From an uncultured Victivallales bacterium (lineage in GTDB: Bacteria > Verrucomicrobiota > Kiritimatiellia > UBA8416): a DNA stretch of 64,000 bases. A program made the translations under genes and the position numbers. Where the stretch lies: NCBI GenBank assembly GCA_964497125.1, contig CAZCDU010000005.1, positions 35,139-99,138 on the forward strand, in the 5' to 3' direction. How positions within the stretch are numbered: position 1 is the first letter of the stretch; every line of letters begins with the position of its first letter. The notes below the pieces were generated by a model. That model ran no database searches, was not told the origin of the DNA, and saw only the letters and a list, made by a program, of their open reading frames with translations. Below are positions 5,122 to 64,000 of the stretch, piece by piece.

Positions 5122-6642
5122 ATGAAATCAATTCTGTCATGTACGATAGCCGCTGTTCTGATGAGCTTTGGACTTACGGCAACTGCCGGTGAGTTTGTTT
5201 CCATCTTTGATGGCAAGACGCTTGACGGGTGGGATGGCGATCCCCGCTTCTGGCGGGTCGAGGACGGTGCGGTCGTTGGCGAAACGACTGAGGAGGTACC
5301 GACAAAGGGCAACACGTTTTTAGTCTGGGAGGGTGGTGAGGTAGCTGACTTTGAGCTCAAGGTGGAGTTCAAGATCCGCAATCACAATAGTGGTATCCAG
5401 TACCGCAGCTTTCCAATAGAGGGGAAGCAGTGGGTTGTGGGCGGCTACCAGGCCGACTTCTCTTCCGACCATAAATGGACCGGTTCCGCCTGGGGTGAGA
5501 AGTACAAGAAGATGTTGGCCGTTCGCGGCGAGAAGACCGTTGTAGGCGAACAGGGGAAAGCCCGGCGCGTGGTGGCGCAGGTCGGGGATGGCGAGGAGAT
5601 CCTCGCGCACGTCGACAAGGATGGTTGGAACGAATACCACATCATCGCCAACGGCAACCAGTGTATCCAGAAGATCAACGGCGTGGTGACAGCGGAGTTT
5701 TCTGAGAGCAGCGAGGAGCGCTTGCGCTCAGGGCTGATTGCCCTGCAGCTTCATGGCGGGCCACCAATGCAGGTGAGCTTCCGCAATATTCGTCTGCGCA
5801 AACTGAATGCCGATGACAAGAAACAGGTTCTCTTCCTGGCCGGTAATAAGAGCCACGGGTACGGCGCACATGAACACAAGGCTGGTTGCCACCTTCTGTC
5901 CCGTTGCTTGAATGAAAGCGGGTTGGACGTTGTCAGCCAGGTAACGACCGAAGGGGCGTGGCCACAGCCGTGGGTCGGGTACGATAAACCCGATACCGTT
6001 GTTATGTACTGTGACGGCTACGCCAGGCACCTGGCCAAGAGTCACCAGGACAAGATTCAGACGCTTGTCGACCAGGGGGTAGGGGTTGCCTGCCTGCATT
6101 TTGGTGTTGAGGTGGTGAAAGAGGAGTTGGGCCCGCAGTTCCTGGAGTGGATTGGCGGGTACTTCGAGAACGGCTGGTCGGTCAATCCACACTGGACGCC
6201 AACGTTCGAGCCGCTGCCCGGGCATGCGATCTGCAACGGCGTGAAACCGTTTTCGATTCGGGACGAGTGGTATTACCACATGCGGTTCCAGCCGGAGTTT
6301 GAAAACACAACCGCCATCCTTGCCGCGAAGCCCCCTCTCGAAACGCTGAAGCGTAAGGGCAGCCGGGGCACGAACCCGACGGTGCAAGCTGCTGTCGAGG
6401 CGGGCGTACCTCAAATCGTGTCTTGGGCCTATGAGCGCCCGAATGGCGGGCGTGGGTTCGGATTCACCGGCGGCCATTTTCACCGCAACTGGGCGCAGGA
6501 TGACTTTCGGAAGTTGGTGTTGAACGCGCTCTACTGGACCGCTGGTGGTGACGTGCCGGCCGATGGCATTGCATCACGTACGCCCACAGAGATTGACATG
6601 GAACTGAACCAGGATTACCCGAAACCAAAGGCGCGCAAGTAG
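5122..6642 (+). CDS. Secreted DUF1080 (3-keto-disaccharide hydrolase-like) domain fused to ThuA-like (trehalose utilisation) domain
   Basis: Signal peptide MKSILSCTIAAVLMSFGLTATA; FDGKTLDGWDGD...ALQLHGG (DUF1080 hallmarks) then ThuA-like C-terminal half; aggagg RBS before ATG 5122. Confidence 0.65.
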   Translation: MKSILSCTIAAVLMSFGLTATAGEFVSIFDGKTLDGWDGDPRFWRVEDGAVVGETTEEVPTKGNTFLVWEGGEVADFELKVEFKIRNHNSGIQYRSFPIEGKQWVVGGYQADFSSDHKWTGSAWGEKYKKMLAVRGEKTVVGEQGKARRVVAQVGDGEEILAHVDKDGWNEYHIIANGNQCIQKINGVVTAEFSESSEERLRSGLIALQLHGGPPMQVSFRNIRLRKLNADDKKQVLFLAGNKSHGYGAHEHKAGCHLLSRCLNESGLDVVSQVTTEGAWPQPWVGYDKPDTVVMYCDGYARHLAKSHQDKIQTLVDQGVGVACLHFGVEVVKEELGPQFLEWIGGYFENGWSVNPHWTPTFEPLPGHAICNGVKPFSIRDEWYYHMRFQPEFENTTAILAAKPPLETLKRKGSRGTNPTVQAAVEAGVPQIVSWAYERPNGGRGFGFTGGHFHRNWAQDDFRKLVLNALYWTAGGDVPADGIASRTPTEIDMELNQDYPKPKARK

Positions 6643-7947
6643 CGCGAGGAAGCATAGTACGATGAGTGAAGTTACACGACGGCACTTCATGCGCGACACC
6701 GCGGTGGCCACTGCGGCGATCAGCACGTTCAACATTCTCTCTTCCCGTGCCCAGGAGGCAGCCGGAGGCGAGGTCCTCAAGGTAGCCGTTGTGGGATGCG
6801 GCGGTCGCGGCAATGGTGCGCTCGGCCACTTCCGGGATGCGGCGAAGCTTCTCGGGAAGGACATTGAGGTCGTCGCGCTATGCGATGCATTTGAGGACCG
6901 GGTCCAAGGCTCGTTGAAGCGCCATGGCGTTGACGCGTCCCGCGGGCACTGGGGCTTCAATGCCTACAAGAAAGCCGCGGAGTCGGACGCGGAGTTTGTT
7001 CTTATGGCGACGCCGCCGAACTTCCGCCCTCTGCATCTTGAGGCGATGATCGAGGCGGGCAAGCACTGCTTTGTCGAGAAGCCCGTTGCGGTGGATCCGG
7101 TCGGGGTGCGCAAGGTGATCGAAGTGGGGGAGCGAGCGAAAGCCAAGGGGCTGGCCATCGTGGCCGGCACTCAGCGCCGTTACCAGAAGAACTTCATCAT
7201 GAACAAGGCCCGCGTTGATGCCGGCGCGATCGGACAGATTGTTGGCGGTACGGTGTCATGGAACGGCCGAGTCCCGTGGATTCACAGACGGAAGGCTCAC
7301 TACAGCGACGCCGAGTATATGACCCGTAACTGGTTGAACTTCACGGAGCTATCGGGCGACCACATCTGCGAGCAGCATGTGCATAACCTTGATGTTGCCA
7401 ACTGGTTCATCGGTCGTACGCCGCAGACCTTTATTGGGTTTGGCGGACGTGCCCGTCGCGAGACAGGCAACCAGTTTGATTTCTTCAGCGTTGACATGGA
7501 CTATGGTGATGGCGTCCATATCCACAGTCAGTGCCGGCAGATTCCGGGTTGCTACAACCGGGTTGGCGAGGTCCTGCGTGGTACCGAGGGAAGGGTCGAT
7601 GGTGGTGGTCGCCTATCCGGCAAAGAGGTGACCGTGCCGGATCCCGTGCTGGAGCATGGCAGCGGCTACGTCCAGGAGCATGTTGAACTGATCAAGGGAG
7701 CCCGGAATGGGAAGCCCGCGAATGCAGCCCGCACCGTTGCTGAGGCGACACTATGCGCTGTCGCAGGTCGGATTTCTGCCTACACGGGCAAGTTGGTGCG
7801 GTGGCGTGATATGATGGAGAATACGAACTCCCCGCTCTATTCGCTCGAGCTTGCCCCGACGGCGTTGGCATTTGAGCAGGGCGAAATAGTCCTGCCCGCA
7901 GAAGTGGCACCGATACCCGGCATGGGGGATGGGGCACGGAATCGAGG
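6009..7947. repeat. Copy 1 of 1939-bp near-identical direct repeat (1 mismatch seen)
   Basis: 6009-7947 aligns base-for-base with 9517-11455 (offset 3508); only difference noted g/a at 7911 vs 11419. Confidence 0.9.
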
Positions 7948-7951
7948 ATAG
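6662..7951 (+). CDS. Gfo/Idh/MocA family oxidoreductase with twin-arginine (Tat) signal
   Basis: RRHFMRDTAVATAA Tat motif; Rossmann VAVVGCGGRGNGALGHF; EKPVA motif of Gfo/Idh/MocA. Confidence 0.8.
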   Translation: MSEVTRRHFMRDTAVATAAISTFNILSSRAQEAAGGEVLKVAVVGCGGRGNGALGHFRDAAKLLGKDIEVVALCDAFEDRVQGSLKRHGVDASRGHWGFNAYKKAAESDAEFVLMATPPNFRPLHLEAMIEAGKHCFVEKPVAVDPVGVRKVIEVGERAKAKGLAIVAGTQRRYQKNFIMNKARVDAGAIGQIVGGTVSWNGRVPWIHRRKAHYSDAEYMTRNWLNFTELSGDHICEQHVHNLDVANWFIGRTPQTFIGFGGRARRETGNQFDFFSVDMDYGDGVHIHSQCRQIPGCYNRVGEVLRGTEGRVDGGGRLSGKEVTVPDPVLEHGSGYVQEHVELIKGARNGKPANAARTVAEATLCAVAGRISAYTGKLVRWRDMMENTNSPLYSLELAPTALAFEQGEIVLPAEVAPIPGMGDGARNRG

Positions 7952-9516: not shown

Positions 9517-10150
9517 CTGTGACGGCTACGCCAGGCACCTGGCCAAGAGTCACCAGGACAAGATTCAGACGCTTGTCGACCAGGGGGTAGGGGTTGCCTG
9601 CCTGCATTTTGGTGTTGAGGTGGTGAAAGAGGAGTTGGGCCCGCAGTTCCTGGAGTGGATTGGCGGGTACTTCGAGAACGGCTGGTCGGTCAATCCACAC
9701 TGGACGCCAACGTTCGAGCCGCTGCCCGGGCATGCGATCTGCAACGGCGTGAAACCGTTTTCGATTCGGGACGAGTGGTATTACCACATGCGGTTCCAGC
9801 CGGAGTTTGAAAACACAACCGCCATCCTTGCCGCGAAGCCCCCTCTCGAAACGCTGAAGCGTAAGGGCAGCCGGGGCACGAACCCGACGGTGCAAGCTGC
9901 TGTCGAGGCGGGCGTACCTCAAATCGTGTCTTGGGCCTATGAGCGCCCGAATGGCGGGCGTGGGTTCGGATTCACCGGCGGCCATTTTCACCGCAACTGG
10001 GCGCAGGATGACTTTCGGAAGTTGGTGTTGAACGCGCTCTACTGGACCGCTGGTGGTGACGTGCCGGCCGATGGCATTGCATCACGTACGCCCACAGAGA
10101 TTGACATGGAACTGAACCAGGATTACCCGAAACCAAAGGCGCGCAAGTAG
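9517..10150 (+). pseudogene. Truncated duplicate of the ThuA-domain 3' end (last ~211 codons of 5122..6642)
   Basis: Identical to 6009-6642; lacks N-terminal DUF1080 and first part of ThuA domain; ORF 9482..10150 only has a fortuitous upstream ATG. Confidence 0.7.
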
Positions 10151-11455
10151 CGCGAGGAAGCATAGTACGATGAGTGAAGTTACACGACGGCACTTCATGC
10201 GCGACACCGCGGTGGCCACTGCGGCGATCAGCACGTTCAACATTCTCTCTTCCCGTGCCCAGGAGGCAGCCGGAGGCGAGGTCCTCAAGGTAGCCGTTGT
10301 GGGATGCGGCGGTCGCGGCAATGGTGCGCTCGGCCACTTCCGGGATGCGGCGAAGCTTCTCGGGAAGGACATTGAGGTCGTCGCGCTATGCGATGCATTT
10401 GAGGACCGGGTCCAAGGCTCGTTGAAGCGCCATGGCGTTGACGCGTCCCGCGGGCACTGGGGCTTCAATGCCTACAAGAAAGCCGCGGAGTCGGACGCGG
10501 AGTTTGTTCTTATGGCGACGCCGCCGAACTTCCGCCCTCTGCATCTTGAGGCGATGATCGAGGCGGGCAAGCACTGCTTTGTCGAGAAGCCCGTTGCGGT
10601 GGATCCGGTCGGGGTGCGCAAGGTGATCGAAGTGGGGGAGCGAGCGAAAGCCAAGGGGCTGGCCATCGTGGCCGGCACTCAGCGCCGTTACCAGAAGAAC
10701 TTCATCATGAACAAGGCCCGCGTTGATGCCGGCGCGATCGGACAGATTGTTGGCGGTACGGTGTCATGGAACGGCCGAGTCCCGTGGATTCACAGACGGA
10801 AGGCTCACTACAGCGACGCCGAGTATATGACCCGTAACTGGTTGAACTTCACGGAGCTATCGGGCGACCACATCTGCGAGCAGCATGTGCATAACCTTGA
10901 TGTTGCCAACTGGTTCATCGGTCGTACGCCGCAGACCTTTATTGGGTTTGGCGGACGTGCCCGTCGCGAGACAGGCAACCAGTTTGATTTCTTCAGCGTT
11001 GACATGGACTATGGTGATGGCGTCCATATCCACAGTCAGTGCCGGCAGATTCCGGGTTGCTACAACCGGGTTGGCGAGGTCCTGCGTGGTACCGAGGGAA
11101 GGGTCGATGGTGGTGGTCGCCTATCCGGCAAAGAGGTGACCGTGCCGGATCCCGTGCTGGAGCATGGCAGCGGCTACGTCCAGGAGCATGTTGAACTGAT
11201 CAAGGGAGCCCGGAATGGGAAGCCCGCGAATGCAGCCCGCACCGTTGCTGAGGCGACACTATGCGCTGTCGCAGGTCGGATTTCTGCCTACACGGGCAAG
11301 TTGGTGCGGTGGCGTGATATGATGGAGAATACGAACTCCCCGCTCTATTCGCTCGAGCTTGCCCCGACGGCGTTGGCATTTGAGCAGGGCGAAATAGTCC
11401 TGCCCGCAGAAGTGGCACCAATACCCGGCATGGGGGATGGGGCACGGAATCGAGG
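9517..11455. repeat. Copy 2 of 1939-bp direct repeat
   Basis: See copy 1. Confidence 0.9.
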
Positions 11456-11459
11456 CTAG
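10170..11459 (+). CDS. Gfo/Idh/MocA family oxidoreductase with Tat signal (intact duplicate of 6662..7951)
   Basis: 429-aa product identical to first copy except where repeat ends at last codons. Confidence 0.8.
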   Translation: MSEVTRRHFMRDTAVATAAISTFNILSSRAQEAAGGEVLKVAVVGCGGRGNGALGHFRDAAKLLGKDIEVVALCDAFEDRVQGSLKRHGVDASRGHWGFNAYKKAAESDAEFVLMATPPNFRPLHLEAMIEAGKHCFVEKPVAVDPVGVRKVIEVGERAKAKGLAIVAGTQRRYQKNFIMNKARVDAGAIGQIVGGTVSWNGRVPWIHRRKAHYSDAEYMTRNWLNFTELSGDHICEQHVHNLDVANWFIGRTPQTFIGFGGRARRETGNQFDFFSVDMDYGDGVHIHSQCRQIPGCYNRVGEVLRGTEGRVDGGGRLSGKEVTVPDPVLEHGSGYVQEHVELIKGARNGKPANAARTVAEATLCAVAGRISAYTGKLVRWRDMMENTNSPLYSLELAPTALAFEQGEIVLPAEVAPIPGMGDGARNRG

Positions 11460-12580: not shown

Positions 12581-12620
12581 AAAGCTGAAATTGGGAAAGC
12601 TGAAAGCTGAGATGGGGATG
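12581..12620. repeat. Purine-rich intergenic repeat aaagctgaaattgggaaagctgaaagctgagatgggg (family member)
   Basis: Near-identical copy at 49891-49947. Confidence 0.6.
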
Positions 12621-12633
12621 GGATTCGTTATAG

Positions 12634-12672
12634 GCGTTGCACGTTGCAGTCGTTGCACGTTGCAGTCGTTGA
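12634..12672. repeat. Tandem ~16-bp repeats GTTGCAGTCGTTRCAC (2.5 units)
   Basis: gcgttgcacgttgcagtcgttgcacgttgcagtcgttgaac; same unit in tandem at 33429-33508. Confidence 0.6.
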
Positions 12673-12724
12673 ACGGGGGATCAAGAACCGGAGCTGGAGG
12701 AGCGCGTTAGGTGAAGGTGGGTAG

Positions 12725-13438
12725 ATGAGCATGAGAAAGCAGCTACTGTATATAGTATGTGTTTTGGCCGCTCTTCAGATAACTACCTCATATGGGGCTG
12801 TGGTGCAGTCCTTCTCTCGCTACGAAGTGATTCTCAGTCGTCGGCCGTTCGGGGAGGCGCCGTCTGAGGCGGAGTTGGCCGCAGCCAAGCCTGTCGTATC
12901 GACTGGACCATCCTTTATTGACTCTCTCCAGATGTGCGCCATTACTGCCGGCGGCGGGGCGGTTCGGGTTGGGTTCCTGGATACGAAGAGTAATCCCCCG
13001 AAGACGTACTTCCTCTTTGTTGGCGAAATGGAAGATGGCATCACTGTGGTCGAAGCGGACTACGATGCCGAGACCGCGCTTCTGAGCAAGGATGGTGATG
13101 AGCGGCTCCTGTCGATGTCGCCTGGCGGCACCGGTTCCTCTTTAACAGCACAAGCCGCGGTCGCTTCTCAAGAGCGCTCCCAGGCATTCAAGAGAATGCG
13201 CCGAGCGAGGGAACTGGCGAAACGTTCGCCAGAGGAGATTGCGCTCGCGCGGCAACTTGCAATCGAACGCAAAGCGCCTCTCTTGAAAGGAGAGGACTAT
13301 GACAAGCACATCCGCGCCTACAATATGAACCTTATCAGAGCTGGGGGAGACATGGGAGTACCCCTGCCCATTACGCTTACGGAGGAAGAGGACGCGCAGC
13401 TTGTTTCCGAAGGCGTATTGGGGACACCGGGAGAGTGA
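12725..13438 (+). CDS. Secreted hypothetical protein, tandem paralog B
   Basis: Signal peptide MSMRKQLLYIVCVLAALQ; paralogous to 11846..12574. Confidence 0.55.
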   Translation: MSMRKQLLYIVCVLAALQITTSYGAVVQSFSRYEVILSRRPFGEAPSEAELAAAKPVVSTGPSFIDSLQMCAITAGGGAVRVGFLDTKSNPPKTYFLFVGEMEDGITVVEADYDAETALLSKDGDERLLSMSPGGTGSSLTAQAAVASQERSQAFKRMRRARELAKRSPEEIALARQLAIERKAPLLKGEDYDKHIRAYNMNLIRAGGDMGVPLPITLTEEEDAQLVSEGVLGTPGE

Positions 13439-21370: not shown

Positions 21371-22084
21371 CTAGTCGTCTCCGCGAAGCGCTTTGAGTTC
21401 CTCCTCTGTGAGGTCACGCCATTGGCCGGGGCGCAGGTCTCCGAGGGTTAGGTCTCTGATCTTTGTACGGGTCAGGCGGTGTATGCGGAGGCCTACCGTC
21501 TCACACATTTTCCGGATCTGTCGGTTGCGACCCTCTTTGAGCTCGAAGATCAGGAGTGCTTTCCCGCTTTCACGGCGAGTGCGCTCAAGCGTTACCTTCG
21601 CCGGGCGCGTCTGGTAGTCGTCGATCAACATCGGCCGATTGAGAACGGCCAGCGCTTCTTCGTTCACGTCTCCTGAGACGGTTACTTCATAGCGCTTGCT
21701 CTGTTCATAACGAGGGTGCGTCAGGCGGTTGGCGAGCTCGCCGTCGTTGGTCAACAGCAACAGACCTTCGCTGTCCTTGTCTAGCCGTCCCACCGGAAAG
21801 AGCCGGCTGTCGATGGTATCGACAAGCTCGAGAACGGTTCTTCCCTGGGCAGACGATGCGCTGCAGATGTAGCCCCGTGGCTTGTATAGAAGAATGGTGC
21901 GGCGGGTGGTGGTATGTCTGACCTCCCTGCCATCAACCGACACGGTATCGGCATCGGGGTCGACCTGTACCCCCGGTTCCTGAACGCAGGCACCGTTTAC
22001 GGTAACGCGCCCGTCCTGAATGAGCTGCTCTGATGCTCGCCGGGAGGCGACACCCGCTTGGGCGAGGTATTTCTGTAAGCGCAT
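21371..22084 (-). CDS. rluB: 23S rRNA pseudouridine synthase, RsuA/RluB family (S4 + PseudoU_synth_2)
   Basis: MRLQKYLAQAGVASRR (S4) and catalytic FPVGRLDKDSEGLLLLTNDG. Confidence 0.85.
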   Translation of the reverse strand: MRLQKYLAQAGVASRRASEQLIQDGRVTVNGACVQEPGVQVDPDADTVSVDGREVRHTTTRRTILLYKPRGYICSASSAQGRTVLELVDTIDSRLFPVGRLDKDSEGLLLLTNDGELANRLTHPRYEQSKRYEVTVSGDVNEEALAVLNRPMLIDDYQTRPAKVTLERTRRESGKALLIFELKEGRNRQIRKMCETVGLRIHRLTRTKIRDLTLGDLRPGQWRDLTEEELKALRGDD

Positions 22085-22120
22085 CTATGAAGTAAAGCAG
22101 CGCAGACCGTCCCGGTCAAC
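22085..22120 (-). promoter_or_regulatory. Conserved promoter-like motif TTGACC-N17-TTTACT-N6-ATG (leaderless) upstream of rluB
   Basis: Minus-strand read ttgaccgggacggtctgcgctgctttacttcatagATG; near-identical motif at 63471-63506. Confidence 0.45.
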
Positions 22121-22173
22121 AGGCCAATGTTGAGGAGTTTCCCCGTTCTTTGCGGGCTGACCAGAGCAGAGAG

Positions 22174-22197
22174 GAGCCAGTTGGAGACAACTGGCTC
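22174..22197. promoter_or_regulatory. Perfect 24-bp palindrome gagccagttg-gaga-caactggctc
   Basis: Divergent intergenic region rluB/UDPGP; shares core CCAGTTG-N4-CAACTGG with 22211-22234. Confidence 0.45.
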
Positions 22198-22210
22198 TAC
22201 TCTAGAAGTA

Positions 22211-22234
22211 CATCCAGTTGTCGCCAACTGGATG
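22211..22234. promoter_or_regulatory. Perfect 24-bp palindrome catccagttg-tcgc-caactggatg
   Basis: Second copy of CCAGTTG-N4-CAACTGG operator-like site, 37 bp from the first. Confidence 0.45.
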
Positions 22235-22349
22235 CGGATGCGCCGCCGGGGAACGGGAGAGAAGTGCACATCTGACTTTGCGTAGCGGTTGGGGTTTTGT
22301 AGAGTGGCGCTGGATTTGCTGGCGATGAAGCAAGAATGAGGAGATTGCT

Positions 22350-23765
22350 ATGATTTCTTATGATGAGGCTAAAGCGTTGTTGGAGGATAAAGGTCAGAAC
22401 CATGTTCTGCGGTTTTGGGATCGGTTGAAGGCCGACGAGCGTGACGCATTGCTGACACAGATTGAGGCCATCGATTTCTCGAGCATCGCATCCATGCAGG
22501 GGCTCTTGGCGTCGGAGGCAGAGGAAGAGGCCGGCGGTGCAATTGAACCATCACCGGTTGTGGAGCTTCCTGAACTCAAAGAGCGTGCAGCGGCTGAAGG
22601 CCTGGCGGCCCTTGGATGCGCGGCGCTGGCCAGAGGCGACGTTGGCGTTGTTCTGGTTGCCGGGGGTCAAGGATCGCGCCTGGGGTTTGACGGTCCCAAG
22701 GGGGCATACCTGGTGGCACCAATCTCGGGGGCCTCTCTCTTCGAGATTCATGCACGCAAGATCCTGGCGCTGGAGCGTAAGTATGGTGCTGAGATTCCGT
22801 TCTACATCATGACGAGTCAGCTTAATGATGCCCCGACCCGAGCTTTCTTCGCTGAGAATGATAACTTCGGTCTCGATGCTGACCGCGTCTTGTTCTTTAC
22901 GCAGCGTATGTGGCCCGCGCTCACGGGCGAGGGCAAGTTGATCCTAGACTCACCGTCTCACATCTTCGTGAGCCCCGATGGACACGGAGGAACCATCACG
23001 GCGCTCCAGCAGACGGGGATGTTTGATGACATGGACCGCCGCGGCATTGAGACGCTATTCTACTTCCAGGTTGATAATCCGCTTGTTGAGATTGCTGATC
23101 CGACATTCATCGGCTTGCACCTCAAGGAGGGCGCGGATGTCTCCGTGAAAGTATGTTCCAAGCGTGACCCGGAGGAGGGGCTTGGGATCGTGGCGAAGAA
23201 GGGCGACCGCAGTATGGTTGTCGAGTACTCCGAGCTGACTCCGGAACAGATGAACGAAAGGCTGCCTGACGGCAGGCTGAAGCTGCTTTTCGGTAGCGTG
23301 GCAATCCATATGTTCTCGGTAGCGTTCTTGAAGAAGGAAGCGGCCTCGCAGTTGCCGCTTCATGTGGCGCACAAGAAGGTTCCTTATCTTGATGATGCCG
23401 GTGAGCTCGTCAAGCCGGATGCTCCGAATGCGTACAAGTTCGAGAAGTTCATTTTTGATTCGATTCCCGATGCCGATATCAGTCTGAACGTTGAGTTTGC
23501 CCGGGAGAACGAGTTCTCTCCGGTAAAGAACGCGGAGGGGAGCGATTCCCCGGCTACGTGTCAGAGGGATATGATCCTGAAGTATGCCGGCTGGCTCGAG
23601 GCGTGTGGCGTCGATGTTGCACGTGACGGCGATGGCATTCCCGTGCATAAGATCGAAATTGATCCCTGCTTTGCATTGGGACCTGAGGATCTGGGCGAGA
23701 AGCTTGGCGAAGGGTTCGTGCTGGATGGGGATTTGCTGCTTTCGGATGAGGAAGAGGCCGTCTAA
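22350..23765 (+). CDS. UDP-sugar pyrophosphorylase (UDPGP/UAP1 family nucleotidyltransferase)
   Basis: LVAGGQGSRLG, PKG motif, YIMTS; eukaryote-type UDPGP fold. Confidence 0.75.
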   Translation: MISYDEAKALLEDKGQNHVLRFWDRLKADERDALLTQIEAIDFSSIASMQGLLASEAEEEAGGAIEPSPVVELPELKERAAAEGLAALGCAALARGDVGVVLVAGGQGSRLGFDGPKGAYLVAPISGASLFEIHARKILALERKYGAEIPFYIMTSQLNDAPTRAFFAENDNFGLDADRVLFFTQRMWPALTGEGKLILDSPSHIFVSPDGHGGTITALQQTGMFDDMDRRGIETLFYFQVDNPLVEIADPTFIGLHLKEGADVSVKVCSKRDPEEGLGIVAKKGDRSMVVEYSELTPEQMNERLPDGRLKLLFGSVAIHMFSVAFLKKEAASQLPLHVAHKKVPYLDDAGELVKPDAPNAYKFEKFIFDSIPDADISLNVEFARENEFSPVKNAEGSDSPATCQRDMILKYAGWLEACGVDVARDGDGIPVHKIEIDPCFALGPEDLGEKLGEGFVLDGDLLLSDEEEAV

Positions 23766-23926
23766 CGCGGAACGCGGAATGCGGAATGCGGAATTGAGAG
23801 GGTATTCCGACGCTGCGCGTTGGCACGCTGAGGCGTGTGCGGCTCGCCAGGGACCCTTCAGCCTAGAAGCGGCAGTTCAACTGCTCTTTCTAGGTTCAGT
23901 GGTGGGCAGGCAGACTCACCCTACCT

Positions 23927-24160
23927 GGGAGTGCGGAAGAGGCACAGGCTCCCCGGAATACCGGGGAAGCCCGTCCTACACGGGTGTTGCGGAAGAGGCA
24001 CAGGCTCCCCGGAATACCGGGGAAGCCCGTCCTACACGGGTGTTGCGCGAGAGGCACAGGCTCCCCGGAATACCGGGGAAGCCTGTCCTACACGGGTGTT
24101 GCGCGAGAGGCGCTGGCTCCCCGGAATACCGGGGAAGCCTGTCCTACACGGACTGTTGCA
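23927..24160. repeat. Tandem repeat, 56-bp unit x ~4, each unit with hairpin ccccgg-aata-ccgggg
   Basis: Period 56 measured at 23941/23997/24053/24107; units contiguous, near-identical. Confidence 0.85.
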
Positions 24161-24186: not shown

Positions 24187-25578
24187 CTACTTCTCGGGGG
24201 AGTCTGGCGGGGGTAGAGGTTTCTGGGCGACGACGATGCGGAAGCCGATGGTGTCGTAGCGGGCTACGGGGCGGTCGATGCCGCGGGCTCGGATCCGTAG
24301 GCTTTCCTTGGAGTCGAAGTCCCATGATCCGCCTTTGCGTACCTTGAACTGGCGGTCAGTCTCATCCATCCAATTGTCGCACCATTCCCAGACGTTGCCG
24401 GCAAGGCCGTAGACGCCCCATTCGTTCATGCCGCTGTTGTCAACAGGGCAGGTCACAGCATAACCATCATCATAGCCGCGTATGCCTTGCCATTGTGAGA
24501 GGTTCTCCCGGGCAGTGGCGTCTGAGTGGTTGCCATAGAGAGGCGGCCAGTCGTTACCCCACGGGTAGCGGCGGGATTCACCACAGCTGGCAACAAATTC
24601 CCACTCGTCAGATGTAGGCAGCCGGAACTCACACTGGACAGGGATTCGATCAGCGAAACTCTCGTTCAGCCAACCGCAGTAAGCCATGGCATCGTCCCAG
24701 CTCACGTACACGGCGGGCTGGTCAGCACCGTTCAGGTCAAGTCCTTCGAAGGCGCGGCTGCTGTGCTTAAGGTCATGCTGGCGATATTGCCGATTCGTGA
24801 TCTCGTACTTCCCGAACCAGATTGCGAGGGGTTCCACCCATACGAAGGAGAGCTGCATTCCCAGACCGAGGGGGACGCTGAGAAACGTGCCGGGCAGAAT
24901 CTCCGGCCCCGCCAGCGGTGCCGCTTTGTCAGGCAGGTCCCCTGTCGGCAGTTCAGGCGGCATGTTGGTTTCGACTTCCGGTTCAGGAAGGTCTTCGATG
25001 ATAAGGAATCCGGCGTTCAGTTCGGTATCGACCCGGGCCTGGGCCAGCAGAACTGCTGCTTTCGAGTACGGGTTCTTCTTAACGGCGAGGTGGAGCGGCG
25101 TGTAGCCCATATCGGTACGGGCGGTGAGGTCTGCGCCGGCATCAATAAGCAACCTAACGGCGGCGGCCGCGTTCTTGCTGGCAGCCCAGTGAAGGGGGGT
25201 AATGCCACTTCGCGCGGCCGCGTTGACATCACCGCCATTGGCGATTAGCAGCGAGACGGTGTCAGCTGCATCACGGCTTGCGGCCCAATGCAATGGCGTG
25301 AAGTCTGTGTCTGTCTTGGCGTTGACCGGGGCGCCACGCTCGACAAGCAGTTTGACGGCAGCATGCAGGTCTGTTGCGGCTGCGAGGTGAAGCGCCGTGA
25401 CTCCGCCCCGAATCGACTCGCTGAGATCGATGTCTGCAGCTGGATTGAGCATCGATTCCAGTGTCACAAGATCGCGAGCACGTACTGCCTGATGTAGAGG
25501 CCCAGCCAAGACGATACTTGGCCGCGTGGCTGTCATCGCTGCTGCAACGATAAAGGTAAAGAGGATCCTACCAAACAT
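24187..25578 (-). CDS. Ankyrin-repeat + FGE-sulfatase (SUMF1/formylglycine-generating-enzyme fold) domain protein, secreted
   Basis: Start MFGRILFTF with signal peptide; ANK repeats (TALHLAAA, TPLHWAAS x2, TPLHLAV); C-terminal FGE motifs YVSWDDAMAYCGWL, GNVWEWC, RKGGSW. Confidence 0.7.
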   Translation of the reverse strand: MFGRILFTFIVAAAMTATRPSIVLAGPLHQAVRARDLVTLESMLNPAADIDLSESIRGGVTALHLAAATDLHAAVKLLVERGAPVNAKTDTDFTPLHWAASRDAADTVSLLIANGGDVNAAARSGITPLHWAASKNAAAAVRLLIDAGADLTARTDMGYTPLHLAVKKNPYSKAAVLLAQARVDTELNAGFLIIEDLPEPEVETNMPPELPTGDLPDKAAPLAGPEILPGTFLSVPLGLGMQLSFVWVEPLAIWFGKYEITNRQYRQHDLKHSSRAFEGLDLNGADQPAVYVSWDDAMAYCGWLNESFADRIPVQCEFRLPTSDEWEFVASCGESRRYPWGNDWPPLYGNHSDATARENLSQWQGIRGYDDGYAVTCPVDNSGMNEWGVYGLAGNVWEWCDNWMDETDRQFKVRKGGSWDFDSKESLRIRARGIDRPVARYDTIGFRIVVAQKPLPPPDSPEK

Positions 25579-25649
25579 AGGTCGCAGTTTAGTCTGGGGG
25601 TGGGGGGGGAGTAAAGCTGAAAGCAGGGGCTGATAGGCTCTGCTGGGGA

Positions 25650-33428: not shown

Positions 33429-33508
33429 GGTTTCAGTCGTTACAATCGTTTCAGTCGTTACACGTTTCAGTCGTTACACGTTGCACGTTGCAGTCGTTAC
33501 ACGTTGTG
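33429..33508. repeat. Tandem ~16-bp repeats GTTTCAGTCGTTACAC / GTTGCAGTCGTTACAC (~5 units)
   Basis: Same family as 12634-12672. Confidence 0.6.
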
Positions 33509-47825: not shown

Positions 47826-48504
47826 AACGTGGCTCGATGAAGACGGGTGGATGCATGTAGATGGGTTCCAGCGGGTCACTCGCGATTCCGGCTACCTTGC
47901 GGTGTCGTGCCAAGCGTGCGACGTCGACGGCAGCGGGGAGTTGGGGCGCCTCAATGAGTGTTACCTCTGCGGGTATGATGCCCCGGAGCTCGGCCTCGAG
48001 GCGATCCCAGTCCGGTGAAACGACGGTGTCACCTTGCCGGAGATGATTTGCGAACTCGTCGATAGGAATAAGCGAAAACGCCTCTTCGATCCGGAGGGGC
48101 GATTGAGACGTGTCGAAGCTCCCCATCCACAGGCGGTGTCTCCGTGCATCGCCGACGACAACAATGCGACCCGTTGGTGACTGTTCGTCCTGAATCCGGG
48201 CCGCGACGGCTTCTGCGCTGCTGACGCCGATCACGTCTGTCTGTGCCGGCAGCGCGAGTGCGCGCACAGCGGATAACGCAATGCGGAGTCCCGTGAAGTT
48301 TCCGGGGCCCAATCCAACGGCGTAGAGATCGACGCCTTTGAATGTGACCGCATGGGCATCCATGAGGGTTGTGATCGCGTCCAGCATGCGTTGCGTTGAT
48401 CCCCGCGCGGCATCCCAGCTCGTTTCACCGAGGCATTGGTCCCCGCAAAGCAGGGCCGCGGACGGCGTCGTGGTCGATGGCTCAATAGCTAGCGTGCAGT
48501 TCAT
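47797..48504 (-). CDS. tsaB: tRNA N6-threonylcarbamoyladenosine biosynthesis protein TsaB (YeaZ)
   Basis: YeaZ/Kae1-like fold pattern LAIEPSTTT...[14 protein letters not shown]. Confidence 0.75.
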
Positions 48505-48603
48505 GGGGACTAAGTAAAACAGAAACGCGGAAATCTGAAAGCAGAAATCGAGAAAAGAAAGAGGGGCAAGGGCGAATGGCGCCTGGACAAGCTCTCCTTT
48601 GCA

Positions 48604-48695
48604 CTAACCCACCCCTGCCCCTCCCAGGAGGGGATCTCGCGTAAAGCGCGCCGGTGCAGGAAGTTCCCCTCCTGGGAGGGGTTAGGGGTGGGTTC
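48604..48695. repeat. Complex palindromic element: ~29-bp inverted arms (ctaacccacccctgcccctcccaggagggg / cccctcctgggaggggttaggggtgggtt) separated by ~33 bp
   Basis: Each arm also contains its own palindrome cccctcc-NN-ggagggg. Confidence 0.55.
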
Positions 48696-49890: not shown

Positions 49891-49947
49891 AAAGCTGAAA
49901 TGGGGAAAGCTGAAAGCTGAGATTGAGATTGAGATTGAGAAGGACTC
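49891..49947. repeat. Purine-rich repeat aaagctgaaatggggaaagctgaaagctgagattgagattgagattgag
   Basis: Copy of element at 12581-12620, plus (gagatt)3. Confidence 0.6.
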
Positions 49948-51613: not shown

Positions 51614-52738
51614 ATGGCAGATGTAACCCTGAAAGACGTGTACAAGATCTATCCTGGTGATGTCACAGCGGTGAAAGAGTTCAATCTTCATATTGAGCAT
51701 GGGGAGTTTCTTGTGCTGGTTGGGCCATCCGGCTGTGGAAAATCAACGACACTGCGTATGGTGGCCGGGCTCGAAGAGATTTCCAAAGGCACCGTCCAGA
51801 TCGGTGAGCGCCTCGTTAATGACGTCCCGCCGAAAGATCGCGACATCGCCATGGTCTTCCAGAATTACGCGCTCTATCCGCATATGACGGTTTACGACAA
51901 CATGGCATTCGGGTTGAAGCTTCGGAAGTTCAAGAAGGCTGAGATTGAGAAGCGCGTCAAGGACGCCGGCGAGATTCTGGGGCTCACCGAATACCTGGAT
52001 CGTCGTCCGAAAGCTCTTTCCGGTGGTCAGCGCCAACGCGTTGCCATGGGACGCGCGATTGTTCGTGAACCGGCCGTGTTCCTGTTTGATGAGCCGCTTT
52101 CGAACCTGGATGCCAAGATGCGTGTTGAGATGCGTAAGGAGATCCTGCGCCTCCACAAACGGATCGCTACCACGATGATCTACGTGACACATGACCAGGT
52201 CGAGGCCATGACGCTTGGTGACCGTATCTGCGTGATGCGCGATGGCATCATTGAGCAGGTGGGGGAACCCACGACAGTGTTCGATCATCCGGCATCGCTT
52301 TTCGTGGCGCGCTTTATCGGGACGCCCCCCATGAACATCTTTGAGGGCACACTGGTGGCTGAAAACGGTCAGACCGTGTTCGTTGGTGGCGAGCTGCGTG
52401 CACCCATTGCGGAGCGGCAGCTCGATATGGTGAAGGACTTCGTCGGCAAGCCGGTTTCTCTTGGCCTACGCCCCAAAGCGTTTTCGCTGAAGGATGCGAA
52501 CACCCCGCCCGATGCCGTGGCATTGCCGGGCACGGTTGAAGTCTGCGAACTGCTGGGGGAAGAGATCCTGGCGCACATGCACAATGGTGATCACAAGTTC
52601 ACGGTCAGCCTGGACCCGCATGTGAAGGCTGAGCTGGATGGTGTTCTGGATATCTGTCTCGACATGCAGCGGGTACATATCTTCGACAATGAATCGGGGC
52701 GGAATCTTACCATGCCGGGGGCGCTCCGGAACGGGTAA
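51614..52738 (+). CDS. ABC transporter ATP-binding protein, carbohydrate-import MalK/UgpC-like (orphan, no adjacent permease)
   Basis: GPSGCGKST, LSGGQRQRVAMGRA, FLFDEPLSNLD; C-terminal TOBE-like domain. Confidence 0.85.
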   Translation: MADVTLKDVYKIYPGDVTAVKEFNLHIEHGEFLVLVGPSGCGKSTTLRMVAGLEEISKGTVQIGERLVNDVPPKDRDIAMVFQNYALYPHMTVYDNMAFGLKLRKFKKAEIEKRVKDAGEILGLTEYLDRRPKALSGGQRQRVAMGRAIVREPAVFLFDEPLSNLDAKMRVEMRKEILRLHKRIATTMIYVTHDQVEAMTLGDRICVMRDGIIEQVGEPTTVFDHPASLFVARFIGTPPMNIFEGTLVAENGQTVFVGGELRAPIAERQLDMVKDFVGKPVSLGLRPKAFSLKDANTPPDAVALPGTVEVCELLGEEILAHMHNGDHKFTVSLDPHVKAELDGVLDICLDMQRVHIFDNESGRNLTMPGALRNG

Positions 52739-53222
52739 GCCTCCTTGGCTGGAGTCTGCTTGCCGGGGACGGCTGCTCAGACTAGGCCTGCGGAGGCTTA
52801 CCCGTTCCTCCGCTGGTTGTTTGAGGCTTTGGGGCAGGGCGCTCCAGAACGGGTAGTCCTCCTTGGCTGGAGTGAGCGGGGCGCTCACTAGGCCTTCGGA
52901 GGACCACCCGTTCTTCCGCTGAGTGTTTGAGGCTTAGGGGCAAGGCGCTCCGGAACGGGTAGGCCTCCTTGGCTGGAGTCTGCTTGCCGGGGACGGCTGC
53001 TCAGACTAGGCCTGCGGAGGCTTACCCGTTCCTCCGCTGGTTGTTTGAGGCTTTGGGGCAGGGCGCTCCAGAACGGGTAGTCCTCCTTGGCTGGAGTGAG
53101 CGGGGCGCTCACTAGGCCTTCGGAGGACCACCCGTTCCTCCGCTGAGTGTTTGAGGCTTTGGGGAGGGCGCTCCGGAACGGGTAAGCCTCCTTGGCTGGA
53201 GTCTGCTTCGTAAGGTAGGGCG
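52716..53222. repeat. Tandem array of structured repeats: 224-bp super-unit (A 118 bp + B 106 bp) x2 plus partial; first unit overlaps last codons of ABC gene
   Basis: ctccttggctgg anchor at 52741/52859/52965/53083/53188; A and B variants keep nested hairpins with compensatory changes. Confidence 0.85.
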
Positions 53223-53789
53223 AACCGTCTCGGTGAGCCGGGATGTACGGCGAACGCATACCTTGTTTGGCACCGCTGCCGATCGAACCGGGTATTCGTC
53301 GTACTTCGTACGCCGCGCGGCTCGGCAGGGACGCCTCGCCCTACCTCGGCGGCATCGTGCGGGAGGGCGAAGTTCTCAGGTCAGCTCCACCGCCGGCGTC
53401 GTTTCTCCGCCAGATCATACATGATGGAAACTTCTCTTGCGTAGGCCGGACATCTTGTCCGGCTGTTCAACTGAAGGATGTAGGCGGGAATCCCGCGGCT
53501 GCGGGACCGCCCTACGGAAGAACCGGAAACACTAAGGAACTGTGGGTGAAGTTCCAGGTCAGCTGGGCCGGCGGCCCAGTCATTGGGTCATTTGGCTCGC
53601 TTCGCGAGCGTCATTAGTCATTGGGAAAGAGGACCGCATTAATCATGCGGGAAACTTCCCAATGACGTGCCGAAGGCACAAATGACCAATGACGGCGGCG
53701 TAGCCGCCTAATGACGAAACGACGAGTGAAACGAGGAAGTTTCAGACTAGGACAGGATGCTCCGGAACGGGTAGTCCTCCTCGGCCTGG
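53223..53789. repeat. Non-coding block rich in GC hairpins and dispersed repeat modules
   Basis: gctcggcagggacgcctcgccctacc (also at 29575), gtaggccggacatcttgtccggc (also at 59918), CAATGAC motif array 53575-53715, partial repeat-A seed at 53758-53780. Confidence 0.6.
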
Positions 53790-54410
53790 TCATTTGCCTT
53801 CTTCGGCGGTTTTCAGGAGTTTGGCTAGGTCGGTGTGGCCGCGTTGTTGGGCGAAGGCGGCGGCGGAGTCGCCATCGGTATCGACGAGTTTGGGGTTGGC
53901 TTTGTGGTCCAGGAGTAGGACGGCGATGTCACCATGGCCTTCGGCCGCTGCGAACATCAAGGCGGTCCAGTTTTCATGTCCATCGGTCAGGTTCACTTCA
54001 GCGCCGGCTTTTAGCAGTGCCTTCACTGTATCGAGATTCGGCCCCGTTGAGGCATACATCAGGGCGGTGCGCTTGGTTTCATCACTGGCGTTCACATTGG
54101 CACCGGCCGAAAGAAGCGCTTCCACGATGGGGGTGTGGCCGTTGAAGGCGCTGAGCATCAAGGCCGTGCGACCATCAGGAGCAGAGATGTCCGGATCGGT
54201 CCCGTTCTTCAGTCCCAACTGTATCCTTTCCAGCTTGCCTCCGAGTGCGGCTTCCAGGAACTGCTCCAATGGCATGGGATTGAGCGGCTTTGTCGTCTCC
54301 GCTTGTGGCTTGGGTTCCGGTTTCTCGGGCGGACGATCGCAACCTGTTAGAAGCGTAGCTGCGGTCAGGGCAGCCAGAATGGATGTCATTTTCCGGGTAG
54401 TGCAGGTCAT
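53790..54410 (-). CDS. Ankyrin-repeat lipoprotein
   Basis: Lipobox LLTGC; ANK repeats (TALMLSAFNGH, TALMYAS, TALMFAAAEGH). Confidence 0.7.
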   Translation of the reverse strand: MTCTTRKMTSILAALTAATLLTGCDRPPEKPEPKPQAETTKPLNPMPLEQFLEAALGGKLERIQLGLKNGTDPDISAPDGRTALMLSAFNGHTPIVEALLSAGANVNASDETKRTALMYASTGPNLDTVKALLKAGAEVNLTDGHENWTALMFAAAEGHGDIAVLLLDHKANPKLVDTDGDSAAAFAQQRGHTDLAKLLKTAEEGK

Positions 54411-62391: not shown

Positions 62392-63470
62392 TACGACGTG
62401 GCCAGTAGGGGGGCAAGGTTCTCGCGCAGCTCTGCCTCGAGATCGCGCTGACGATAGCGGGCTAACCGTTTGGATTGCTGTTTGACGACAGCGGCTCGCA
62501 GGGCTGCGTTGCCGGTGAGCTGGCCCAGCAGCTCGGCGGCAAGGTCATATCGGCGTTCTGATAGCAGAAGTCCGCTGCCATCCAGGGTTTCGGGAACAGC
62601 TGCCGATGCATGTGCAACGATCGGTACACTGTGCAACATGCTTTCCAAGAGCGGGATGCAGAAGCCTTCATGCTCACTCATGCAGAGAAAGGCGTCTGCG
62701 CTGGCGTAGCAGGCATTGAGTTCGGGTTGCGTGACGGTACCACAGAAGAGGACGTTGTTCAGTTGCAGTTCCCGCACATACGTGGTGAGGAGGCTGTAGT
62801 AACGTTCAGAGCCGGCATGCGATCCAACGTGAACAAGCCGGGAACGTGGCTCAATGGTCTTCTGGTAATAAGCGAACACCTGTAGCAGGTCCTCAATCTT
62901 CTTATTGGGTGTGCAGCGACCGACGAACAGGATGTTCTTGCAGCCATCCGAGAGCTTGCTACGCATCCGCGCATCGATATCGTCCGTCAGCCGAGAGAAA
63001 TCCAGCACCAGCGGCAACACCGTGACGTCGCGGTAGCCTGCTGCTTCCAGCTCAGACGCATTGAAACGACTGTCCGCCATGTTCACTTCGGCAATATAGG
63101 CGAGAGCGGCGATCTGCTCCCGCCCTCGTTGCAGGATTCCCGCTGTCTGCTTGTTGACGAGCTCGAAGTAGTTGGATGGCGTGATGTTGTGGTACAGAAT
63201 CGCTTTCTTGCATGGCAGCTCTTTGAACGCGTCGTTGACTTTGGAGCCGACGGAAAGGTGCAGGAGGACGATGTCGTCCGGCGATGCGACGGGGATGTAG
63301 TGTTCGATATCTCTCACCTGTTTGCGCTGCGCCGGCTGAACGCAACGGTCTTCACTGAAGATCTCAGATGTATAGCCCCAGCGCCGGAAAATCGTGCGGA
63401 ACAACGTTGCCTCATTGCTGATGGCATCGCCTGGCGTATGGCCGGGAGAGAATTGGTGAATAGCAGACAT
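62391..63470 (-). CDS. Glycosyltransferase family 4 (GT-B fold)
   Basis: EGF/EHEGFCIPLLESM motif typical of GT4. Confidence 0.7.
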   Translation of the reverse strand: MSAIHQFSPGHTPGDAISNEATLFRTIFRRWGYTSEIFSEDRCVQPAQRKQVRDIEHYIPVASPDDIVLLHLSVGSKVNDAFKELPCKKAILYHNITPSNYFELVNKQTAGILQRGREQIAALAYIAEVNMADSRFNASELEAAGYRDVTVLPLVLDFSRLTDDIDARMRSKLSDGCKNILFVGRCTPNKKIEDLLQVFAYYQKTIEPRSRLVHVGSHAGSERYYSLLTTYVRELQLNNVLFCGTVTQPELNACYASADAFLCMSEHEGFCIPLLESMLHSVPIVAHASAAVPETLDGSGLLLSERRYDLAAELLGQLTGNAALRAAVVKQQSKRLARYRQRDLEAELRENLAPLLATS

Positions 63471-63506
63471 GGCCTAAGTAAAACAGCGCAGACCGCTCCG
63501 GTCAAT
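63471..63506 (-). promoter_or_regulatory. Conserved promoter-like motif TTGACC-N17-TTTACT-N6-ATG upstream of GT4 gene
   Basis: Minus-strand read ttgaccggagcggtctgcgctgttttacttaggccATG; near-identical to rluB upstream motif. Confidence 0.45.
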
Positions 63507-63591
63507 AGGCCAATGCTAAATTGGCAGCGAAGCGGCAAATCTGAGATTGGGAAAGCGGAAATGGTGAAAAGGCGAGGGTCATGGTTCCGGG

Positions 63592-64000
63592 CTAGTCCTG
63601 CTCGCCGGTACCATCGATCACGGAATCCAGCAGGACGGCGTCGGGATTGATACCAAGCTTCTTGAGCTTGGTGGCGACCGCCTCGTTCTTAGGATCAAGG
63701 GCATAGCTCTCGCGCCAATAGCTCGTTGCCACGGCTTTATTGCCGAGGGCGTTATGGACTTCACCCAGGTGATCAAGAATCTCGGCGTCAGGCCCCATCA
63801 GCTTACTGGCCTTCTCAAGTTCTGTCAGGGAGTCTTCGAAGCGGCCCTGCTTGAAGTGGATCCACCCGAGTGTATCACGGTAAGGCGCGCTGTCGGGCAC
63901 CAGTTTCAGCGCGCGGTTGACGTATTCAAGTGCGCGATCCAGTTTCATGTCGGCCTCGGCCCAGGTGTAGGCGAGGTAGTTCAGAACGCGGTGACTCTCA
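63592..64000 (-). CDS. TPR-repeat protein, partial (5' end beyond window)
   Basis: TPR-like helices; reading frame remains open upstream of the annotated ATG to the window edge. Confidence 0.55.
   Translation of the reverse strand, partial: ESHRVLNYLAYTWAEADMKLDRALEYVNRALKLVPDSAPYRDTLGWIHFKQGRFEDSLTELEKASKLMGPDAEILDHLGEVHNALGNKAVATSYWRESYALDPKNEAVATKLKKLGINPDAVLLDSVIDGTGEQD

Follow-up and report, generated by a model that had tools for sequence, protein, structure and literature searches.

The element upstream of rluB in the 64,000-nucleotide stretch of DNA analysed here (the window) is a real, non-random and conserved motif. It is probably the proximal part of a reusable, lineage-specific promoter cassette that would drive leaderless or nearly leaderless mRNAs, a reading drawn from comparison of related sequences. 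The constant core is CTG-YTTTACT, which is found 6-9 nt ahead of the start codon in 13 instances from seven genomes, at rluB, tsaB, GT4, tsaE, rnhC and nth. Upstream of this core stand two interchangeable modules, referred to below as A and B. To our knowledge, the promoter architecture of PVC bacteria outside Chlamydia and Akkermansia is essentially unmapped, and the organisms considered here are uncultured.

If this reading is true, the CTG-YTTTACT core together with an A or a B module would supply a searchable promoter model for the lineage, as well as a rule for mending mis-called start codons, with at least five database proteins here wrongly extended or truncated. It would also be a clean natural case in which modular promoters are reused ahead of conserved housekeeping genes. 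If confirmed, a -10-like box that apparently works without an A at position -11 would be of interest to transcription specialists.

The Element in the Window

The element was first described as a 40-nt motif at rluB composed of TTGACC, a 17-nt spacer, TTTACT, tcatag and the ATG, and it is present exactly as written. The near-identical element that the original prediction placed before the gene for a GT4 glycosyltransferase holds up as well, over a shared block that reaches ten bases further than first described (CATTGGCCTR...YTTTACTT). Within this block, the rluB copy (minus strand, 22129-22090) and the GT4 copy (minus strand, 63515-63476) are the same at 36 of 40 bases; their flanks cannot be aligned and the edges of the block are sharp. 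The two copies have the common reading CATTGGCC-T-R-TTGACC-N17-TTTACT-N6-ATG, and the gene behind the second copy heads a GT4-tsaE-pyrF-nth operon. A third site, with the sequence ctgTTTTACTTAGtcccc ATG, precedes tsaB at 48504. There, the gttttacttag-N-ATG part that this start was said to share can be read directly in the sequence as ctgTTTTACTTAGtccccATG. Coordinates are collected in Table 1.

Table 1. Positions of the cassette and its parts at four genes of the window.
Feature	Position	Strand	Remarks
rluB copy through ATG	22129-22082	minus	CATTGGCCTG TTGACC GGGACGGTCTGCGCTGC TTTACT tcatag ATG
rluB CATTGGCCTG	22120..22129	minus	right half of GCCAATG-N3-CATTGGC palindrome plus linker
rluB TTGACC, -35-like hexamer	22114..22119	minus	5/6 match to TTGACA
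rluB 17-nt spacer GGGACGGTCTGCGCTGC	22097..22113	minus	conserved core CGGTCTGCGCTG at 22109-22098
rluB spacer CGGTC	within 22097..22113	minus	right arm of GACCG-N3-CGGTC palindrome
rluB TTTACT, -10-like hexamer	22091..22096	minus	TG at 22099-22098, extended -10-like
rluB tcatag, discriminator (hexamer to ATG, 6 nt)	22085..22090	minus	sole polymorphic stretch in 10 population contigs
rluB ATG start	22082..22084	minus	23S rRNA pseudouridine synthase; proposed +1 of a leaderless mRNA
GT4 copy through ATG	63515-63468	minus	CATTGGCCTA TTGACC GGAGCGGTCTGCGCTGT TTTACT taggcc ATG
GT4 module A	63537..63575	minus	T-rich TTTCNG-type repeats, upstream of module B
GT4 complete module B plus hexamer	63477..63536	minus	GCCGCTTCGCTG CCAATTTAGCATTGG CCTA TTGACC GGAGCGGTCTGCGCTGT TTTACT; nhmmer E=4.6e-20
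GT4 TTGACC	63505-63500	minus	
GT4 spacer	63499-63483	minus	
GT4 TTTACT	63482-63477	minus	followed by taggcc
GT4 ATG	63470-63468	minus	
tsaB promoter, A-only type	48502..48558	minus	T-rich repeats 48558-48519; ctgT; TTTACT 48518-48513; tagtcccc; ATG 48504-48502
Ankyrin/FGE-sulfatase gene, A plus CTTTACT core	25576..25616	minus	CTTTACT 25616-25610, 31 nt before ATG; then 18 nt, TAAACT 25591-25586, 7 nt, ATG 25578-25576

Comparison with shuffled sequence shows how far these matches depart from chance. The degenerate 40-mer has two matches in the window against 0.00 expected, and CTGYTTTACT has three against 0.12 expected, with all three sitting 6-8 nt before a true ATG. The bare hexamer TTTACT occurs eight times on the two strands of the window, three of them at gene starts. 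The 12-nt core of the spacer, searched alone with up to two mismatches, was not enriched (11 matches, 10.9 expected), and for this core only the two exact copies count.

Exact proteins were found on metagenome contigs, the longest of which is Ga0171655_1000466 (68 kb). Neither 40-nt block varies across 19 such contigs, of which 10 carry the rluB copy and 9 the GT4 copy. The single variation is found among the rluB contigs, where the stretch between hexamer and ATG carries either catag or tgtag.

Genes and Start Codons Behind the Element

The products of the downstream genes are those named in the original prediction: an RluB-type pseudouridine synthase, a GT4 glycosyltransferase (followed by tsaE, pyrF and nth) and TsaB. 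RluB (S4 and PseudoU_synth_2 domains), GT4 (Glycos_transf_1), TsaB and RNase HIII belong to unrelated families, and a check of such genes for a shared function, as had been suggested, shows the set leaning toward RNA and DNA housekeeping (rluB, tsaB, tsaE, rnhC and nth). The S4 domain of RluB aligns from residue 1, and the N-termini MRLQKYLAQAG, MSAIHQFSPGH and MNxTLAIEPS are kept in relatives; the start codons assigned here are therefore credible. In the databases, by comparison, the rluB, GT4 and tsaB calls in proteins P0002 (254 aa), P0122 (378 aa) and P0242 (252 aa) are wrongly extended through the cassette, while P0121 (337 aa) and P0241 (196 aa) are wrongly truncated to an internal ATG. 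These starts are likely mis-called in the clade because the true ones lack a ribosome-binding site. An analysis of intergenic hexamer enrichment was uninformative, as longest-ORF gene models swallow these promoters.

A fourth site in the window has a different layout. Upstream of the ankyrin/FGE-sulfatase gene, module A and CTTTACT are followed at some distance by TAAACT, and this arrangement is kept in L033, L034 and L035, giving four species with the window. TTTACT lies here where a -35 box would be relative to TAAACT, and its role at this gene is consequently ambiguous. At the ankyrin/FGE gene and at an M50 peptidase gene, the cassette is found 31-58 nt from the start codon. It is thus not bound to the start codon, which points to a signal at the DNA level and argues against a translation signal.

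Near tsaB, in the divergent intergenic region that it shares with purH, lies a 20-nt inverted repeat (48618-48681; CCCCTCCCAGGAGGGGATCT / AGTTCCCCTCCTGGGAGGGG) with 95% complementarity and a 24-nt loop.

Relatives of the Window Organism and the Constant Core

Had the motif been absent elsewhere, the original prediction would have fallen; it is instead found in an uncultured Victivallales MAG (L003/L037) and in L038 and L040. The MAG was reached by two routes. In a scan of GTDB genomes, one per species, with the core and hexamer as query (CGGTCTGCGCTGNTTTACT), seven matches were returned, of which one was genuine, namely the element upstream of rnhC in the MAG (L003). The other six came from unrelated phyla without extended similarity and were set aside as chance matches, as were all six matches of a metagenome scan with CCGGNNCGGTCTGCGCTGNTTT. 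The remaining loci were obtained through protein homologs, so that six related metagenomic species were compared, or seven genomes with the window organism; instances of the motif within them were located by Hamming and nhmmer searches. The sample is biased, since the loci were chosen via these same genes. Those fetched by rluB were L033 (79% protein identity), L034 and L035 (73% and 71%), and L036 and L037 (the MAG) were fetched by rluB and GT4 (60% and 71%). GT4 also retrieved L038 (85%) and L039 (81%), and tsaB retrieved L040 (71%) and L041 (66%).

The core is the constant part of the cassette. In the window organism it lies 6 nt before the ATG at rluB, GT4 and rnhC (L018:3654) and 8 nt before it at tsaB. 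The 6-nt distance is also found at rluB in L033, at GT4 in L038 and L039, and at tsaB in L040. L039 further has rnhC, tsaE and nth at 8 nt, the last with CCCTACT, and in the MAG both GT4 (CTCTACT) and rnhC stand at 9 nt. TTTACT is thus exact in 11 of 13 instances; 12 conform to YT[T/C]TACT and one is CCCTACT. Every one of the 13 starts is an ATG. In 12 of them a TG precedes the hexamer with one base in between, and of the 12 instances examined at position -1, nine have a pyrimidine, which is usually C.

At pgi, YTTTACT is found 15-17 nt before the ATG in the MAG (L037:2504, minus strand) and in L039 (L039:3612, minus strand), with a GGAGGA Shine-Dalgarno sequence in between. The pgi gene of the window organism has TGATAAT-GGGAGA and a GTG start instead.

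Modules A and B and the Portability of Module B

Module A consists of T-rich TTTCNG repeats, for example atttctgctttcccaatttctg. It can be identical between different genes of different species, as in the 37 of 37 positions shared by rnhC of the window organism (L018) and tsaE of L039. Module B is about 52 nt long and follows the pattern GCCGCTTCGCTG-CCAATG-N3-CATTGG-CC-NN-TTGACC-N2/4-CGGTCTGCGCTG. It holds the GCCAATG-N3-CATTGGC palindrome, TTGACC and CGGTCTGCGCTG, and corresponds to the conserved element of the original prediction. The copy at rluB breaks off at the centre of the first palindrome, whose left half is missing there (nhmmer match to model positions 20-60).

The distribution of module B does not follow the genes. 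It is present at rluB in the window and absent there in L033; present at GT4 in the window, L038 and the MAG and absent in L039; present at rnhC in the MAG and absent in the window organism and L039; and present at tsaB in L040 and absent in the window. With module B coming and going at orthologous promoters, the conserved spacer cannot be taken as a constant signature of these genes, and a gene-specific regulator site is not the simplest reading of a spacer that lies within a portable module.

Sequence identity follows the same lines. The window GT4 cassette and the tsaB cassette of L040 are the same at 86 of 96 positions, with 39 of 39 in module B, and identity between the window GT4 cassette and its own orthologs is lower (83% in L038 and 76% in the MAG). 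Within the MAG, the GT4 and rnhC cassettes share 84 of 91 positions, and the spacers of both are 2 nt shorter. An nhmmer profile of module B run over about 241 kb of clade DNA returned no further full copy and one degenerate copy, upstream of nth in L038. All seven distinct copies in this DNA are promoter-proximal and have one orientation. From these comparisons, module B is best read as having been gained, lost or copied among the promoters of a few housekeeping genes (rluB, tsaB, GT4-tsaE, rnhC and nth), both within and between related species.

The degenerate copy lies in the pyrF-nth gap (L038:5880-5960). It has CCAACG-ggg-CGTTGG in place of CCAATG-nnn-CATTGG, where T>C on one arm is matched by A>G on the other and the palindrome is preserved, and is followed by A-like repeats and then TTTGCT-N7-ATG of nth.

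Repeats of the module A type (AAAGCTGAAA.../...TTTCAGCTTT) are also found directly after stop codons, where the T-rich, promoter-like strand runs antisense into the 3' end of the gene. Such repeats occur in the window at 12581-12619 and 49891-49929 (plus strand as listed, with the T-rich strand being the minus strand) and in relatives at L033:8092-8127, L033:5149-5180 and L036:7750-7783, and some of them finish with CTTTACT, CTTTTAT or CTTTATT. Their possible roles include those of an antisense promoter or of an element of the 3' end; alternatively, they may form a dispersed repeat family able to work in both orientations.

The Proposed Leaderless Promoter

In the proposed mechanism, CTG-YTTTACT would serve as an extended -10-like element and would be read by a holoenzyme of the sigma-70 family. 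Module B would donate a near-consensus -35 box at 17 nt, and module A may act like an UP element or as curved DNA. [quoted passage not shown] Module B itself would spread by gene conversion, by recombination at short CTG/CGCTG repeats or by transfer.

Much of the geometry agrees with this proposal. Both window copies, L038 and L040 have TTGACC-17-TTTACT-6-ATG with TG at the extended -10 position, and their 17-nt spacing lies within the 16-18 nt accepted between hexamers. All six B copies carry TTGACC, matching five of the six bases of TTGACA where at least four were asked for; promoters with module A only keep the TG and have no recognisable -35 box. In the MAG copies, TTTACT is 15 nt from TTGACC and 2-3 nt farther from the ATG, while TACTCT is at 17 nt. 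Read in this register, as TTGACC-17-TACTCT-7-ATG, the MAG copies have the canonical spacing back together with a TAnnnT box, which they are the only ones to offer.

The hexamer itself does not fit the proposal. TTTACT does not have the form TAnnnT, as its second position (-11) is a T and not the near-invariant A, and for this reason it is not a canonical -10 box. A sigma-70 consensus scan of 21800-22500 and 63300-64000 returned no promoters. The leaderless promoter of the original prediction is partly supported, by its geometry, by the TG and by the placement of the core 6-9 nt before the ATG at 13 starts, with a hexamer that departs from the canonical -10.

Shine-Dalgarno pairing is absent at the four starts scored in the window organism (rluB, GT4, rnhC and ankyrin/FGE; dG +1.9 to -2.2 kcal/mol). 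With the canonical anti-Shine-Dalgarno sequence, the duplex energies are +1.9 for rluB, -1.8 for GT4 and -2.2 for rnhC, as against -7 to -11 for genes led by a Shine-Dalgarno sequence, although about half of the organism's called genes lack its core and this absence therefore discriminates weakly. Canonical -10-like boxes also stand near the ATG of other genes in the organism that lack a Shine-Dalgarno sequence, such as a purN-like gene with TAAAAT-N8-ATG (L018:6518-6542) and a floA-like gene with TAGCAT-N8-ATG (L018:12900-12924); the TAAACT-N7-ATG of the ankyrin/FGE gene is likewise canonical. The purN-like and floA-like boxes suggest that the organism commonly expresses genes without a leader. 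About 10% of the starts mapped in Akkermansia, which also belongs to the PVC bacteria, are those of leaderless transcripts (PMC4782308).

A plain -35/-10 promoter does not explain the tight conservation of the spacer CGGTCTGCGCTG and of two palindromes, which reaches 39 of 39 positions across species. This conservation allows three readings: the copies may be recent, made by gene conversion or transfer; a factor may bind them; or a hairpin may be required, with one degenerate copy showing a paired change (CCAACG...CGTTGG).

Alternative Readings

Several other readings of the cassette were weighed against a leaderless promoter. Module B might chiefly be an operator, with one or two dimeric factors binding its two palindromes (GCCAATG-N3-CATTGGC, centred at about -47, and GACCG-N3-CGGTC, centred at about -27 and overlapping the -35 box) and co-regulating a small regulon for RNA modification and nucleic-acid maintenance. 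Both palindromes are perfect, with constant arms around variable centres (TTAGC, GGG, AAG, GAA; GGA, GAG, TAC), substitutions among the six copies concentrate in the linkers, and the cassette genes overlap in function (tsaB, tsaE, rluB, rnhC, nth). Against an operator stand the presence or absence of module B at orthologous promoters and in only some genes of the set within one genome, the loss of the left half-site of the first palindrome at rluB, and an identity of 36-39 of 40 nt, which exceeds what an operator normally needs. In the MAG, moreover, the arms of the second palindrome are 2 nt closer to each other, a change that a rigid dimer would tolerate poorly. We consider it unlikely that this is the main role of module B, though an operator could coexist with a promoter. 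CTG-YTTTACT, with or without TTGACC, could also be read by an alternative sigma factor that recognises a -10 box of its own, which would account for the lack of an A at -11 as well as for a hexamer that is unusually invariant. The extended core is near-invariant over 10 nt and far less degenerate than a housekeeping -10 (with TTTACT exact in most instances, as given above), the consensus scan rejects it, and other genes of the organism use TAnnnT boxes (TAAACT, TAAAAT, TAGCAT) at an equal distance from the ATG. TTGACC at 17 nt together with TG is nevertheless the classical housekeeping architecture, the A-only promoters lack the conserved -35-like box that such factors usually require, and the genes have constitutive housekeeping functions, all of which leaves an alternative sigma factor improbable. 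Sigma-54 and ECF-type promoters were rejected by eye against their consensus spacings, with no GG-N10-GC spacing and no GAAC/CGTC pair found. TTTACT was also rejected as a -35 box for a -10 box within the coding region, there being no TAnnnT 16-18 nt downstream in rluB or GT4.

The cassette could also lie in a transcribed 5'-UTR with the promoter further upstream, in which case the U-rich module A and UUUACU would recruit ribosomes without a Shine-Dalgarno sequence (for example through protein S1) and the hairpins of module B would be regulatory. The A repeats are indeed U-rich on the sense strand, translation without a Shine-Dalgarno sequence is evidently common when half of the genes lack one, and module B can fold as two hairpins closed by a short helix, the first of which survives in the degenerate nth copy of L038 through its paired change (CCAACG-ggg-CGTTGG). 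The fold energies are no better than those of shuffled sequences, however (z +0.34, -0.70, -1.20 and -1.53), minimum-energy structures differ between copies, none of 16 predicted pairs is compensatory among the five full copies, and no Rfam match at gathering score was found in the window. A structured cis-regulatory RNA was rejected on the same lines, there being no Rfam match, covariation or excess stability. In addition, the cassette nearly fills the 72-121 nt gap before GT4 and leaves no space for a promoter further upstream, module A is missing altogether from the rluB copy, and the distance from core to start varies from 6 to 58 nt. A GC-rich module B between a U-rich module A and the start should break an S1-type leader, yet it is tolerated. 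A 5'-UTR of this kind is accordingly very unlikely. A further reading takes module B as a relic of, or an active, tiny mobile element of the MITE, REP or IS-end kind, whose outward -35 box forms a hybrid promoter with the resident -10. It would fit with the insertion or deletion of B at a fixed point between module A and CTTTACT, with the short direct repeats that flank it (...CGCTG/CCAAT...GCGCTG/YTTTACT), with its palindromic content, and with a weak match to a Y1-transposase-like gene (PF01797) on L035. Copies within a genome are closer to each other than orthologous copies are, with the 15-nt form in the two MAG copies and the 17-nt form in the two from the window. In the same 241 kb of clade sequence, though, B is confined to promoters of the same few genes in one orientation, the GTDB scan found the exact 18-mer at a single site of the MAG (with the GT4 copy of the MAG being one base off), and no copy has terminal inverted repeats or an associated transposase. 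A mobile element is hence a decidedly improbable source of module B.

In a more novel reading, which we consider unlikely, module B would be recognised by a trans-acting factor dedicated to it, be it a regulator or a specialised sigma factor. Co-evolution with that factor would keep the site near-invariant (39 of 39 positions across species), and gene conversion would shuffle it among leaderless promoters that together form a small regulon for tRNA/rRNA modification and nucleic-acid maintenance (tsaB, tsaE, rluB, rnhC, nth). If true, uncultured Victivallales-like PVC bacteria would have a regulatory circuit that has not been described before and that relies on TTTACT as a non-canonical -10.

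Comparison With Known Systems

Taken as a promoter that yields leaderless mRNAs, the cassette is a fresh example of known phenomena, namely leaderless promoters and propagated promoters. Like the leaderless-mRNA promoters of Mycobacterium, Deinococcus, Streptomyces and Akkermansia, it places a hexamer 6-8 nt before an obligatory ATG, lacks a Shine-Dalgarno sequence and leads to mis-called starts. Unlike them, its TTTACT lacks the A at -11 that defines their TANNNT box, and the element is far more invariant than a normal -10 and is part of a repeated cassette. Extended -10 (TGn) promoters typically have no recognisable -35 box. The cassette resembles these in the TG one base before the hexamer and in its A-only versions without a -35, and departs from them in a non-canonical hexamer and in the T-rich repeats that replace the usual degenerate upstream region.

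Outward-facing -35 boxes at the ends of IS elements and MITEs make hybrid promoters, as with IS1, IS2, IS256 and Correia elements. Here too, a short inserted segment sets a consensus -35 at the right distance from a resident -10. In contrast to those elements, the cassette has no transposase, terminal inverted repeats, clear target-site duplication or, in the 241 kb searched, non-promoter copies, and is found there in a single orientation. Putative mobile promoters, as defined by more than 50 nt at 80% identity or above (Matus-Garcia, Nijveen and van Passel, 2012; PMC3488235), are likewise homologous upstream sequences before non-homologous genes, within and across related genomes. By that measure, the GT4/rnhC pair of the MAG (91 nt, 92%) and the pair formed by window GT4 and L040 tsaB (96 nt, 90%) qualify, and the pair within the window (40 nt, 90%) is too short. 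The authors of that study emphasised species-specific genes, whereas the cassette abuts the start codon, is modular in its A and B parts and serves conserved housekeeping genes (PMC3488235).

Other Repeats in the Window

Several further repeats were seen in the window. The segments 6009-7951 and 9517-11459 form a direct duplication with 3508-nt spacing and blocks of 100% identity, and include two copies of a gene for a 429-aa GFO/IDH/MocA oxidoreductase (6662-7951 and 10170-11459). Downstream of a UDP-glucose pyrophosphorylase-like gene, a 108-nt stretch occurs four times in tandem, overlapping with a 56-nt period and with 63-100% identity (23876-24151). A tandem array of about 224 nt that is 99% identical (52714-53208 and 53750-53797) overlaps small ORFs; it contains sub-repeats of 48 nt (GGGCAAGGCGCTCCGGAACGGGTAGGCCTCCTTGGCTGGAG...), whose spacings alternate within 105-118 nt. 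Finally, short tandem repeats of the CGTTGCACGTTGCAGT type are found in intergenic DNA at 12635-12678 and 33456-33506, upstream of the genes at 12725 (plus strand) and 33421 (minus strand).
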